From a virus, in IMG/VR virus record IMGVR_UViG_3300002062_000001, positions 1 to 64,000 of that record: a stretch of 64,000 nucleotides of DNA. One strand, written 5' to 3'. The notes beneath the pieces are model-generated. The model had not been told where the DNA came from and made no database searches. It worked only from the letters and a program-made list of their open reading frames with translations. Made by a program: the position numbers and the translations under genes. Numbering within the stretch: the first letter of the stretch is position 1; each line of letters opens with the position of its first letter. Below, in pieces: positions 20,799-22,631 of the stretch.

Positions 20799-22631
20799 TT
20801 AGGCTTCCTTCTTCTGGCCAGCCTGACGAGCGCGGAAAGCTGCAGCGGCGTCACTGACGCTGGCAGGCTTCGTGCGCTTGTCGCCGGTGGCGATTGCGGA
20901 CTGGATGGGGTCGCCGCTGGCACCGGCACCATTGCCGTCGCCTGCAGTGTCGAACGTCGCGGCATAGGCACCACGGACGAAGGCTTCGTCCCGGTCCTTC
21001 ACGAAGTCAGCGCCGCGCTTGTCGCTGAGGGCTTTCCGCATACCGCCAACGACATCATCGTTGATCGTGGCTGCGTCCTTGCCCTGCCATTCGTAGTCGT
21101 CGCCCAAGATCGCGCGGGCTTCGTCGGCCTGGGCCAGCTTCGCGTTGATGGCGTCGTCCAGCTTCGCCGTGTCCTTGGCGTCGGCTTTCAAGGCTTCGAT
21201 TTCGCCGTCCTTCTTCGAAATCTGTTCCTTCATTTTCTCTTCGTCTTCGTCGGCCTTTTTCTTGGCGTCGATCAGTTCCTGATCCTTTGCCGCCAGCTTG
21301 GCCTTCAGGTCTTCGATGACCGGCGCGGCTGCATCATTTGCAGCAACAACCTTGTCGCCTACGACCACGTTGGTCAGTGTTCCGCTCATAGCGTCGTTCT
21401 CCATTTTAGGATGGTTGATGGGGGTCGCGCCCCACGGGTCCGAACCGACAGAATCGCCAATCCGGCACAAGTGCCCAGCGCGTCCACGCTCGACGATGGC
21501 GATGTGGTTCACGCGGATGTCGCGCTGAACCGCATCGTAGGCTTCACCATCGGCTGTGGTGCCGGGGGTGAAATCCAGCTTGCAGTCGTATCCGACTGAA
21601 AGTTCTCGGGTGCCCGCTGTGACCAGATCGATTGCCTTCTGGTCTTTCAGGATCAGCGGGATGTTGATGATGTCCATGACGCCATCGGTCTTTTTCTTGA
21701 CCGCCGTCGATGCTTCGCCCACCGCAAGATCGCGGTAGTTTCCGGGAGACACTGCGACCGGCGGGTGGTCGATGGTCACGGTGGCGTGGCTGTAGGACTG
21801 CAGGGAATCGGACGCGAAGACTTCTTCAGCGGGGCGATAGACCCGGACCACATCCTTGTCCTTCATCCCGACTTCGTGGCCGGCATAAAGCTGGATGCCA
21901 GTCCGGGCCACGTTCGCTTCGGCGACCAGCGACCCATCCGCAAGGGTCTTGGTGCCGGGGATGACCACCCCGTCGATGAACCGGGCGCGATCTTCGCGAA
22001 GGTTCTCGCGATAGCCGTCGTCGATTTCCTCGAAACGCTCTGGACCCAGCTTGATTTCGCCTTGGAAGGGTTCGACTTCTTCCAAGTCTACATCCCCGGC
22101 GTCGTAGGTGATGGTGACGTGCGGCTGATAGGGCGAATGGGTGTGCTTCGCGCCCATATACTGCATGTCTTCGTTGCGCCACTGCACTTCCGAGTGGGCG
22201 AACAGCAGGACGACGGCATCCCCGAACTTCTCCATCAGGCGGGGTCCGCCTTCCGGGACGGTCAGATCGCTGGTCCACGGCGACCCCATCTTCATCCAGT
22301 CCACCGGCTTCTGGGAATACATGATCGTGACGTGCATGTCCGCCGGTGGCAGCGTGGTCTTGAAGCCCTGAGACTTTGCCCATGCTTGGATTTCAGCGCC
22401 GTTCAGGACCGGGCGCATGACGTACAGGCTGCGCGGTGCCGCGTCCTGCGCTCGAGGTCGTTCACCTGCCTTCGCGATCTGGGCCAGAGTGTCAGCCCGG
22501 TCGTTCTGGCGATCAAGGATCATCGGGGGATAGAAGACCGCGGTTCCGTCGTCGTCGATCTTCCATCCGGTTCCCTTTTCAGGGTCGTAGTTCATGGACT
22601 GCATCCGCTTGCCTTTCAGCAGCATGTCCAT
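20799..22631 (-). CDS. fusion protein: N-terminal 2H-phosphoesterase-like domain, DUF2213 prohead protease/scaffold and a C-terminal coiled coil
   Basis: Two H-V-T-I tetrads (MHVTIMY and PHVTITY) lie 71 residues apart. These are followed by DUF2213-like motifs (ARTGIQLYAG, VYRPAEEVF, TIDHP, RELSVGY, NHIAIVERGRAG). ATG at 22631 lies 6 nt after GAGGGGG. The ORF extends to 22667. Confidence 0.7.
   Translation of the reverse strand: MDMLLKGKRMQSMNYDPEKGTGWKIDDDGTAVFYPPMILDRQNDRADTLAQIAKAGERPRAQDAAPRSLYVMRPVLNGAEIQAWAKSQGFKTTLPPADMHVTIMYSQKPVDWMKMGSPWTSDLTVPEGGPRLMEKFGDAVVLLFAHSEVQWRNEDMQYMGAKHTHSPYQPHVTITYDAGDVDLEEVEPFQGEIKLGPERFEEIDDGYRENLREDRARFIDGVVIPGTKTLADGSLVAEANVARTGIQLYAGHEVGMKDKDVVRVYRPAEEVFASDSLQSYSHATVTIDHPPVAVSPGNYRDLAVGEASTAVKKKTDGVMDIINIPLILKDQKAIDLVTAGTRELSVGYDCKLDFTPGTTADGEAYDAVQRDIRVNHIAIVERGRAGHLCRIGDSVGSDPWGATPINHPKMENDAMSGTLTNVVVGDKVVAANDAAAPVIEDLKAKLAAKDQELIDAKKKADEDEEKMKEQISKKDGEIEALKADAKDTAKLDDAINAKLAQADEARAILGDDYEWQGKDAATINDDVVGGMRKALSDKRGADFVKDRDEAFVRGAYAATFDTAGDGNGAGASGDPIQSAIATGDKRTKPASVSDAAAAFRARQAGQKKEA

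Follow-up and report, generated by a model that had tools for sequence, protein, structure and literature searches.

Our analysis identified a 610-amino-acid head-assembly protein in which an Acb1-family 2H phosphodiesterase domain is fused to a DUF2213 core and a helical, scaffold-like tail, encoded within a 64,000-nucleotide stretch of viral DNA (positions 1 to 64,000 of IMG/VR record IMGVR_UViG_3300002062_000001, hereafter the window). We propose, with a probability of roughly 0.6, that the protein represents a capsid-internal Acb1 cargo that hydrolyzes CBASS-type signals and is carried by the DUF2213-scaffold. The results computed here comprise domain identity, predicted fold, a conserved active site, purifying selection, a nested start, and recurrent attachment of the domain to procapsid-internal proteins.

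The gene forms a single uninterrupted open reading frame (maximal extent, 20799-22667) on the minus strand, the strand having been left unstated in the first-pass annotation. Its parts are as follows.

20799..22631, minus strand: full-length gene, Acb1-DUF2213-scaffold fusion, 610 amino acids (open reading frame list; start and stop checked; stop codon TAA at 20799-20801).
22637..22643, minus strand: Shine-Dalgarno motif GAGGGGG, 5 nt upstream of the ATG at 22631 (upstream sequence CCTCAAATGAGGGGGCAAAA-ATG).
22434..22631, minus strand: N-terminal region, residues 1-66, poorly conserved (pLDDT 46-73).
22002..22433, minus strand: Acb1-family 2H phosphodiesterase domain, residues 67-210 (PF23474, profile against 7T26, fold, and dN/dS).
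21948..22001, minus strand: flexible linker between the Acb1 domain and the DUF2213 core, residues 211-228 (pLDDT 51-59).
21450..21947, minus strand: DUF2213 / Pa193_gp24 core, residues 229-394 (PF09979; family profile; model pLDDT >90).
20805..21326, minus strand: C-terminal helical, scaffold-like region, residues 436-609 (AlphaFold helices, model residues 221-394).

The ATG at 22631 was likewise chosen as the start by independent gene calls on four metagenome contigs, on which the identical 610-amino-acid protein is present. Orthologues with the same architecture occur in other metagenomes (P0002, 72% identity; P0004, 42% identity; P0005, a fragment). Because the identical copies on four contigs and the diverged orthologues share one architecture, the fusion is not a product of assembly, and an assembly or frameshift artefact was rejected. 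Residues 1-66 share 47% identity with P0002, with synonymous sites saturated. A derivation of this region from the C-terminal end of a portal, or from a ChaB domain such as the S78_2 fusions have, was considered and rejected, as phmmer retrieved P0002 only and Pfam returned nothing. The linker assignment rests on its low pLDDT together with disorder in residues 1-9 of the DUF2213 model. A promoter and terminator scan of the 20-27 kb region returned nothing exceeding shuffled expectation.

The presence of a 2H, Acb1-type domain had been proposed in the first-pass annotation from two H-V-T-I tetrads 71 residues apart, and both elements of that proposal held. The tetrads occupy residues 100-103 and 171-174, inside the region in which they had been placed, and the Pfam Acb1 model PF23474 matched residues 68-208 over model positions 2-142 of 144, a match that chance does not explain (E=3.5e-37; 127.8 bits, cutoff 27), with the catalytic and adenine-binding residues in place. 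A direct phmmer comparison of the window domain with crystallized Acb1 (7T26) reached only E=0.006; the family profile of the domain matched the same protein at E=2.8e-20. The AlphaFold model was confident (pLDDT >90 over residues 70-210), and the Foldseek search suggested earlier as a check returned a predicted 2H fold, with Acb1 7T26/7T27 at ranks 1-2 among PDB entries (E=2.5e-8; TM 0.77). The best matches also included the phage BCSR5 phosphodiesterase 9Q2Y, ahead of LigT; LigT and CPDase ranked below Acb1 at a TM of about 0.5. A literature search on the BCSR5 phosphodiesterase structures found no paper. The LigT_PEase and 2_5_RNA_ligase2 models, with cutoffs of 23.3 and 27, reached only 13.6-13.7 bits.

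T4 and FBB1 Acb1 were placed on the family HMM with hmmalign to obtain residue equivalences, and the roles of the T4 residues were taken from published work (PMC9117128). Three segments carry the predicted active site.

22323..22334, minus strand: first catalytic motif H100-V-T102-I, equivalent to T4 Acb1 H44/T46.
22110..22121, minus strand: second catalytic motif H171-V-T173-I, equivalent to T4 Acb1 H113/T115.
22011..22031, minus strand: lid/adenine-contact segment E201-E-I-D-D-G-Y207, in which E201 corresponds to T4 Acb1 E141 and Y207 to W147.

H100 and T102 were kept in at least 58 of 60 homologues, H171 was invariant, and T173 was found in 59 of the 60. At the lid position, the family consensus is W, and the window protein has Y207. 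Among the base-stacking aromatics of T4 Acb1, Y12 is conserved as Y70, F107 corresponds to H165 (His or Phe in the family), and W74 corresponds to E134 in a loop with uncertain alignment. As two of the four aromatics (W74 and F107) are not conserved, the substrate range may differ from that of the T4 enzyme. The dN/dS of the domain (0.19) equals that of the essential parts, indicating purifying selection. Judged from sequence and modeled structure together, residues 67-210 probably have an Acb1-type enzymatic function.

The second part of the protein, annotated at first pass as a DUF2213 prohead protease/scaffold, fared differently in its two halves: the DUF2213 assignment and the helical, scaffold-like tail were recovered, and the protease was not. 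PF09979 matched residues 229-394 (172.6 bits, cutoff 22; E=9e-51), and the DUF2213 family profile matched Pa193 gp24 (9B40_G, from entry 9B40; E=1.7e-12), its sole match among all PDB sequences. Three residues of the core occupy invariant columns.

21765-21767, minus strand: H289, invariant residue of the DUF2213 core.
21597-21599, minus strand: S345, invariant residue of the DUF2213 core.
21504-21506, minus strand: H376, invariant residue of the DUF2213 core.

All three were invariant in 46 sequences and are also kept in Pa193 gp24, and the DUF2213 motif ELSxGY is similar to GMSVGF of HK97. Comparison of the core with S78_2, T4 gp21, and HK97 gp4 by hhalign was not significant (E=0.2-0.3), the matches of the confident DUF2213 model in a Foldseek search against PDB included no protease and reached E=0.11 at best, and a Pfam scan of the fusion protein revealed no protease family. 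DUF2213 relatives in BFVD carry the label "prohead protease" by annotation only. With these comparisons to known prohead proteases negative in both fold and profile, a protease role for DUF2213 was not confirmed, and we treat the term as an annotation-level claim.

The C-terminal 175 residues were predicted to form long helices, and phrog_530 spans residues 216-608. Within this part of the gene, a second start was apparent.

21399..21402, minus strand: internal Shine-Dalgarno motif GGAG, 9 nt upstream of an internal ATG.
20799..21389, minus strand: predicted nested in-frame gene for a 196-amino-acid scaffold protein starting at Met415 (ATG at 21387-21389).

Across the 58 in-frame internal ATGs of six DUF2213 genes, a Shine-Dalgarno motif preceded all six homologous internal ATGs and none of the other 52. 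Met415 was conserved in 45 of 46 DUF2213 family members, and the internal Shine-Dalgarno motif was kept at the DNA level while the encoded peptide was not conserved. Lambda C/Nu3 and Mu I/Z are nested protease/scaffold genes, and the conserved motif and ATG imply a nested scaffold gene of the lambda C/Nu3 type at Met415, as predicted from sequence and by analogy. The conserved nested start is also a useful annotation point across the DUF2213 family, in which the role may be that of scaffold only or of protease plus scaffold.

The fusion gene sits between the portal/MuF genes and the cement/major capsid genes of the window, of which three bear on the argument.

20340..20795, minus strand: cement protein gene, immediately downstream (PF22758 Phage_cement, E217 gp24 / Pam3 gp6; E=6.8e-27).
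19392..20321, minus strand: major capsid protein gene (PF09950; E=4.6e-65).
28843..30285, minus strand: portal protein, 480 amino acids, without a C-terminal Acb1 module (only PF06381, residues 35-385).

The window portal, at 480 amino acids, compares with 621 and 600 amino acids for the portal-Acb1 proteins Pam3 gp3 and phiPSA1 gp44, respectively. Another product of the head module has an Acb2/Tad1 hairpin domain; neither a PDB sequence match nor a PHROG match was found for it.

To place the fusion among its relatives, an exhaustive search for the Acb1 domain was performed, yielding 1,885 cluster representatives, and architectures were counted on the closest 150. The window's Acb1 is a member of a large sister clade separate from T4-type Acb1, and these closest 150 are mostly tethered to procapsid-internal proteins. 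The domain was C-terminal on a portal in 106 of the 150 (including Pam3 gp3) and N-terminal on an S78_2 protease in 11; Acb1-DUF2213 accounted for 2 of the 150 and for 4 of the 120 top DUF2213 homologues, making the DUF2213 scaffold-type carrier a rare arrangement within the clade. At every locus examined, the fusion was placed between portal/MuF and capsid genes. Polyvalent relatives combine NUDIX-Acb1-DUF2213, ChaB-Acb1-S78_2-ADP-ribosyltransferase, and portal-Acb1-Zeta toxin. A tblastn search of 50,697 phage records for a named phage with an Acb1-DUF2213 fusion returned no single-piece match.

Under the proposed model, the Acb1 domain would hydrolyze adenine-containing cyclic di- and trinucleotide immune signals of the CBASS type through metal-independent acid-base catalysis by its His and Thr residues. 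The internal ribosome-binding site and the ATG at Met415 would yield the scaffold tail alone, comparable to lambda C/Nu3; with the tail also made alone, the full-length protein would co-assemble with free scaffold, and its own scaffold tail would draw both the DUF2213 core and Acb1 inside the procapsid. Acb1 would thus be made during head assembly, when CBASS is triggered, and end up enclosed in the particle; cleavage in the flexible linker may then release it to enter the next host along with the DNA. Here we infer the substrate range, the incorporation of the N-terminal domain, its cleavage, and its ejection. LC-MS of virions revealed the DUF2213 homologue Pa193 gp24, which lies inside mature capsids with its C-terminal helix-turn-helix bound at the five-fold vertices on the inside, and the authors could not tell whether its N-terminal part is kept in the capsid (PMC11456595). 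The location of this homologue supports the Acb1 enzyme ending in procapsids, and by this analogy incorporation of the fusion is likely. Delivery of the enzyme into the next cell is a tentative step, and a somewhat doubtful one: ejection would require a folded 17-kDa domain to pass through the tail, and since CBASS acts late, early delivery is not obviously required.

The same enzyme might instead act in the cytoplasm of the producing cell, with the fusion coupling the timing and amount of Acb1 to the late head genes and with any capsid molecules being incidental and undelivered. Scaffold-type proteins are produced abundantly late in infection, which suits this account, and a standalone clade member (P0127) at the same portal/MuF junction suggests that expression timing could be the selected feature. 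Two kinds of late CBASS activator have been reported, prohead protease activity (PMC12991175) and scaffolding-protease proteins (10.1101/2023.05.21.541620). However, most of the fusions (those 106 of the closest 150) are on the portal, a low-copy protein present at 12 per virion, which rules out abundance as a general reason; the property common to portal C-termini, MuF, and scaffold/protease N-termini is a procapsid-internal location, and the co-fused ADP-ribosyltransferase and Zeta toxin domains look like injected effectors. We regard action confined to the producing cell as unlikely, though as the most probable of the alternatives to the capsid-internal cargo proposed here.

The fusion could also be neutral, an Acb1 gene at the portal/protease junction having been joined to its neighbor through stop-codon loss or rearrangement and working as any Acb1 would. 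The standalone, portal-fused, and DUF2213-fused versions share one junction, just 172 nt separate portal-Acb1 from DUF2213 in phiPSA1, and the DUF2213 fusion is as rare as the above counts indicate. Against this, lineages as far apart as 42% identity retain the fusion, its linker and reading frame undisturbed, and Acb1 has been fused independently to at least three unrelated head proteins, always in an orientation that leaves the assembly end of the partner free (C-terminal on portals, N-terminal on proteases and scaffolds), making neutrality very improbable. Weakest of all is a role in RNA-end or RNA processing (a LigT-like 2',3'-cyclic phosphodiesterase or Usb1-like RNase directed against RNA-cleaving defenses or serving host takeover), for which one may cite that 2H enzymes often act on 2',3'-cyclic phosphate RNA ends, that T4 57B-type proteins are called "RNA ligase" in many databases, that two residues with which Acb1 stacks its substrate are not conserved, and that an RNase role is one option proposed for portal- and MuF-fused 2H domains by Iyer et al. 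(PMC5512222), but which is disfavored by the subthreshold LigT_PEase and 2_5_RNA_ligase2 scores against 127.8 bits for Acb1, the closer fold match to Acb1 than to LigT, the retained adenine-specific Glu and lid aromatic, the absence of RNA ligase, kinase-phosphatase, or other RNA-repair genes among the window open reading frames scanned (a set that excluded some small ones), and the finding of the same authors that such 2H versions show no association with RNA ligases.

Beyond capsid-internal cargo, the choice of fusion partner may carry meaning of its own. In CBASS sensing, protease activity has been reported to cleave the CD-NTase activation loop, and scaffold domains to induce CBASS toxicity (PMC12991175; 10.1101/2023.05.21.541620). 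Since scaffold-protease proteins are thus reported as CBASS triggers in two recent studies, Acb1-protease/scaffold fusions form a natural experiment on the place and time at which the signal needs to be destroyed. A trigger-coupled antidote can be imagined, in which Acb1 is welded onto the head protein sensed by many CBASS systems, so that each trigger molecule brings its own cGAMP/cA3 hydrolase to where the CD-NTase is activated; we consider this improbable at present. It would span two unrelated carrier families, DUF2213 and S78_2, joined repeatedly to Acb1. If true, the fusion partner would be more than a capsid vehicle, reflecting the spatial logic of CBASS sensing, and the fusions could serve to mark, in genomes, the phage proteins that act as CBASS triggers.

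So far, Acb1 has been studied in T4-like phages, where it is free in the cytoplasm. T4-type Acb1 (T4 gene 57B; Erwinia phage FBB1, PDB 7T26/7T27), an anti-CBASS cyclic-oligonucleotide phosphodiesterase (Hobbs et al. 2022, PMC9117128), has PF23474, the predicted 2H fold, and the HxT/HxT tetrad in common with the window protein, with a spacing of 69 residues in Acb1 and 71 here, and its adenine N6-contacting Glu and lid aromatic are retained. The T4-type enzyme is free-standing, with 152 amino acids and a gene outside the head module, whereas the window domain constitutes the N-terminal third of a 610-amino-acid head-assembly protein; likewise, the lid is a free C-terminal end in Acb1 and continues into the linker here.

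Toward its C-terminus, the protein resembles lambda C/Nu3 and Mu I/Z, in which an in-frame internal start gives a scaffold and a longer enzyme-bearing protein with a common C-terminus, as predicted here, although no similarity of the DUF2213 core to the proteases of lambda, Mu, HK97, or T4 was detected. T4 IPI*, T4 Alt, and the P1 Dar proteins are packaged anti-defense proteins, and the idea of counter-defense proteins riding in the capsid is common to our proposal; unlike those systems, the window protein has no defined capsid-targeting sequence or cleavage site. If packaged, the Acb1 enzyme would extend their logic to nucleotide-signaling immunity and represent a directly testable, pre-loaded catalytic anti-CBASS weapon. 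Pa193 gp24 (9B40), a putative scaffolding protein of 478 amino acids and the namesake of PF09979, has a homologous DUF2213 core with the His/Ser/His residues kept, a helical C-terminal part, and a gene adjoining the cement and capsid genes, as in the window. It is without an Acb1 domain, and its presence inside the capsid was established by experiment, whereas that of the window protein is predicted.

The closest sequence relatives of the window domain are portal-Acb1 fusions (gp3 of Pam3, a structurally studied phage, PDB 8HDS; gp44 of the Pseudomonas phage phiPSA1; Rhizobium RHph phages). Pam3 gp3 matched it over residues 454-620 (E=1e-36), and the preceding linker is homologous too. The Acb1 module of the Pam3 portal was not recovered by Foldseek against 8HDS, so this module may be disordered or may have been removed by cleavage. 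These phages and the window agree in phage type and in head module (portal, MuF, DUF2213, cement, and major capsid protein), but in the former DUF2213 is a separate gene of ~375 amino acids, whereas in the window Acb1 is on DUF2213 and absent from the portal; the number of copies in each capsid and the release mechanism are expected to differ between the two carriers.

The fusion had been regarded at first pass as uncharacterized, a view that goes too far for its class, given the module on the Pam3 portal and the work of Iyer, Burroughs, Anand, de Souza, and Aravind 2017 (PMC5512222), in which 2H domains on portal and MuF proteins are predicted to be delivered effectors that degrade defense nucleotide signals. 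The DUF2213 partner itself appears to be undescribed: the carriers named in the passages of that paper considered here are MuF and portal, and not DUF2213 or S78_2 proteases, and a literature search for Acb1 fused to virion proteins returned nothing beyond that article. The 2H domain was not yet recognized there as Acb1, which was discovered in 2022. The concept of Polyvalent proteins set out in the same paper, a conflict-related enzymatic domain on a head-morphogenesis protein, is nevertheless the one realized here, with Acb1 joined to a DUF2213 head protein and with relatives adding NUDIX, ADP-ribosyltransferase, and Zeta toxin domains.

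Our analysis placed the gene in a single uninterrupted open reading frame on the minus strand (maximal extent 20799-22667), in which an ATG at 22631, with GAGGGGG 5 bases upstream, opens a 610-aa protein; gene callers picked the identical start on four independent metagenome contigs (71-74 kb). The first-pass annotation had described an ORF at 20799-22631, leaving its strand unstated, with two H-V-T-I tetrads 71 residues apart, and both were recovered, at residues 100-103 (nt 22323-22334) and 171-174 (nt 22110-22121). On the plus strand, a 957-aa open frame (18726-21599) runs antisense to the genes for capsid, cement and DUF2213 proteins; its translation is of low complexity and rich in Arg, Gly and Val, and the frame almost certainly reflects high GC content rather than a gene.

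The proposal that these tetrads mark an Acb1-type 2H phosphoesterase domain was borne out by profile, PDB, fold and residue comparisons. The Pfam Acb1 model PF23474 matched residues 68-208 with 127.8 bits (gathering score 27; model positions 2-142 of 144), against merely 13.6-13.7 bits for the generic 2H models LigT_PEase and 2_5_RNA_ligase2. A single-sequence PDB search gave a weak match to the crystallised Acb1 7T26 (E=0.006); a 52-homologue profile matched it at E=2.8e-20, along with the 'Anti-CBASS protein Acb1' entries 9Q2G and 9Q2Y. The AlphaFold2 model from the 52-homologue alignment had pLDDT >90 across residues 70-210, and Foldseek against the PDB indicated a predicted 2H fold nearest to solved FBB1 Acb1 (7T26/7T27; E=2.5e-8, TM 0.77 over target), with a Burkholderia phage BCSR5 phosphodiesterase also among the best matches and LigT, plant CPDase, AKAP18 and coronavirus ns2 at lower ranks (TM ~0.5). 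T4 57B and FBB1 Acb1 from GenBank were aligned to the family HMM, with T4 residue roles taken from the literature (PMC9117128). The catalytic tetrad H100/T102/H171/T173 corresponded to T4 H44/T46/H113/T115, E201 to the adenine-N6-contacting E141, Y207 to the lid aromatic W147 and Y70 to Y12; H165 fell at the F107 position, where the family carries His or Phe, and E134 at the W74 position, in a loop of uncertain alignment. Against the 72%-identical orthologue P0002, dN/dS was 0.19 for the Acb1 domain, 0.17 for the DUF2213 core and 0.22 for the C-terminal helices. This equality with the other two parts, together with the profile, fold and retained residues, indicates a maintained, apparently active Acb1-family member.

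The carrier had been called a DUF2213 prohead protease with a scaffold-like tail; the domain assignment and the tail stood, and the protease label went unsubstantiated. Residues 229-394 matched DUF2213 (PF09979, renamed Pa193_gp24 in newer Pfam releases; 172.6 bits), the family profile matched Pseudomonas phage Pa193 gp24 (PDB 9B40; E=1.7e-12), and the AlphaFold model of residues 216-610 ran from a confident beta-rich core through a disordered stretch and a hairpin into ~175 residues of long helices. Mature Pa193 virions contain gp24 by LC-MS, its residues 286-326 forming a helix-turn-helix pentamer on the capsid inside at the five-fold vertices; the authors, who regarded it as a putative scaffolding protein, were unable to tell whether the rest was cleaved or disordered (PMC11456595). 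For the Pam3 homologue gp5 the annotation reads 'head scaffold protein', and phrog_530 and RefSeq label DUF2213 proteins 'head maturation protease'. Foldseek of the DUF2213-part model against the PDB gave no significant match, hhalign of the core against S78_2, T4 gp21 and HK97 gp4 gave E=0.2-0.3, and the family profile found no protease among all PDB sequences. Invariant His289/Ser345/His376 in the family alignment, kept even in Pa193 gp24, and a Ser motif (ELSxGY) similar to HK97 GMSVGF are what still speaks for the protease label after these fold and profile tests, and we therefore prefer to describe the carrier as a predicted scaffold-type head-assembly protein that may additionally be a protease.

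The scaffold-like tail may also be produced alone. Of the 46 sequences in the DUF2213 alignment, 45 conserve Met415 (ATG 21387-21389, minus strand), a residue of the disordered stretch that precedes the helices. In six loci diverged to <42% identity, GGAG, GAGG or AAGGAGG stands 6-9 nt before the equivalent ATG, the encoded peptide differing; among all 58 internal in-frame ATGs of these six genes, used as a control, the motif occurred at six only, precisely these homologous positions.

21387-21402, minus strand: internal Shine-Dalgarno motif and ATG, also in the related DUF2213 loci L004, L006, L009, L011 and L012

Occurrence at all six homologous ATGs and no others is the hallmark of an in-frame start inside the gene, predicted from sequence to yield the C-terminal ~196 residues. 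This would imply a nested scaffold gene across the DUF2213 family, including Pam3 gp5 and phiPSA1 gp45, and a new annotation point for DUF2213 genes; the Pa193 and Pam3 papers make no mention of such a start.

Nearly all of the best 120 of 882 whole-protein homologues were ~380 aa long and consisted of DUF2213 alone, with Mesorhizobium/Rhizobium prophages the source of many, and only four carried an Acb1 domain. An exhaustive HMMER scan with the Acb1 domain alone returned 1,885 cluster representatives (50% identity; 383 at E≤1e-30), and architecture classes were assigned for the best 150: portal-Acb1 with a C-terminal module (106), Acb1 followed by an XkdF/S78_2-type protease (11), standalone Acb1 or other partners (31), and Acb1-DUF2213 (2: the window protein and an 879-aa NUDIX-Acb1-DUF2213 protein). 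Pfam scans agreed with the portal-Acb1, Acb1-S78_2 and Acb1-DUF2213 assignments and gave multi-enzyme relatives (proteins P0235, P0201, P0199, P0252 and P0187) of the types NUDIX-Acb1-DUF2213, ChaB-Acb1-S78_2-ADP-ribosyltransferase, portal-Acb1-Zeta toxin, portal-pyridine nucleotide oxidoreductase-Acb1 and Mu-type portal-Acb1. A fold match to the DUF2213 model, BFVD A0A6J7W8E3, is labelled Nudix hydrolase domain-containing. The closest PDB-sequence relative of the Acb1 module was the C-terminal 167 residues of the Pam3 portal (8HDS; E=1e-36); absence of the 8HDS chain among the Foldseek matches of the Acb1-domain model suggests that this domain was left unmodelled in the cryo-EM structure.

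Fused or standalone, Acb1 lay at the portal/MuF-to-protease/scaffold junction in all examined loci but one, a standalone copy in the nucleotide-metabolism neighbourhood of a large phage. In locus L009 (JGI 3300072491 contig), a standalone Acb1 gene lies between portal fragments and MuF, and portal and major capsid are both broken into several short gene calls (4904-5919, 9647-10053); frameshifts or sequencing errors could explain the splitting, and the 'standalone' state may be partly an assembly effect. The T4 ipI gene encodes internal protein I, which is packaged in the capsid and injected. It directly adjoins T4 acb1 (gene 57B, still annotated 'RNA ligase'; locus L014, NC_000866, 73591-74410), possibly by coincidence.

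A search of 50,697 records found a single-piece Acb1-DUF2213 fusion in no named phage: in Pam3, phiPSA1 and the Synechococcus phages two different genes encode the parts, with Acb1 within the portal gene or beside it (172 nt from the DUF2213 gene in phiPSA1), whereas the window has both in one. The domain comes from a known family, and its attachment to DUF2213 is rare and undescribed. The claim that such fusions were uncharacterised held for this attachment but not for the class: Iyer et al. 2017 (PMC5512222) describe 'polyvalent proteins' with a 2H phosphoesterase fused to MuF or portal, proposed as an RNase or as degrading nucleotides of nucleotide-activated defence systems. The 2022 definition of Acb1 was of a free-standing enzyme (PMC9117128), and our literature search found no paper that describes, as such, a fusion of Acb1 to a portal, protease or scaffold protein.

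The gene belongs to a head module of a ~71-74 kb phage genome whose sources are metagenomes only:

30295-31614, minus strand: large terminase, head module
28843-30285, minus strand: portal, 480 aa, without an Acb1 module, head module
26870-28807, minus strand: 645-aa MuF-type head-morphogenesis protein (PF04233, phrog_3517)
25507-26280, minus strand: 257-aa protein with a C-terminal Acb2/Tad1 hairpin domain (residues 196-253; PF24729, E=2.4e-12)
25033-25527, plus strand: HNH/endonuclease VII-type homing endonuclease (phrog_3322, E=3e-29), inside the ORFan stretch
20340-20795, minus strand: cement protein, downstream of the Acb1-DUF2213 gene
19392-20321, minus strand: major capsid protein, downstream of the cement gene
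47894-49354, minus strand: C5 cytosine DNA methylase
40235-41935, minus strand: SNF2-type helicase
58147-59106, plus strand: TerC-family integral membrane protein (E=5e-43)

The ORFan stretch (~3.9 kb), to which the 257-aa protein also belongs, is inserted between the MuF and Acb1-DUF2213 genes; a PDDEXK nuclease and tail genes are also encoded in the window, which has no tRNAs. Residues 400-457 of the MuF-type protein weakly match a zincin-like 'MPTase-PolyVal' peptidase, and it is probably a polyvalent protein with further cargo. The 257-aa protein had no PHROG or PDB sequence match; its hairpin domain makes it a possible second counter-defence protein of the head module, sponge-like towards cyclic nucleotides or gcADPR.

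The reading with the best support is that the window protein carries an active Acb1-type phosphodiesterase inside the capsid, and the first-pass interpretation is supported at the computational level. We put the enzymatic function at about 0.8 and entry into procapsids at about 0.7. The full-length protein would enter through the tail common with free scaffold, as the Pa193 data, nested start and partner pattern suggest, the nested start offering the N-terminal Acb1 domain a concrete route. By analogy, the domain would then be freed at the flexible linker and ejected together with the DNA into a new host, a step we regard as tentative. The main rival holds that Acb1 works only in the producing cell, the fusion merely setting timing and dose; the low-copy portal as dominant partner speaks against dose as a general driver, though dose may still be the driver for scaffold fusions. 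Because Panoptes guard systems can be tripped by Acb1 activity (PMC13577387), restricting its time and place of action might matter. An RNA-end-processing role is a minor alternative; no RNA-repair genes were found among the window's ORFs scanned. A neutral origin of the fusion is likewise minor.

The DUF2213 carrier gains relevance from three CBASS studies, two on triggers and one on inhibition of the effector CapV: type I CBASS escape mutants map to 'scaffolding prohead protease' proteins, the scaffold domain by itself causing CBASS-dependent toxicity (10.1101/2023.05.21.541620), CD-NTases are activated when prohead protease activity cleaves the activation loop (PMC12991175), and CapV is inhibited by a virion ejection protein (10.1101/2025.07.23.666291). 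That Acb1 is welded to proteins sensed by CBASS, the trigger bringing its own antidote, seems unlikely to us; caution is due because the commonest partner is the portal, not protease/scaffold, and because the protease role of DUF2213 is putative, at the level of annotation. The fusion is of interest because it is directly testable. Both lambda C/Nu3 and Mu I/Z pair free scaffold with a longer protein that bears the enzyme, the two co-assembling via a common C-terminus. The window gene resembles both in its putative internal in-frame start and a scaffold tail predicted to be made alone, and the ejection step would find its likeness in the T4 IPI*/Alt and P1 Dar proteins.
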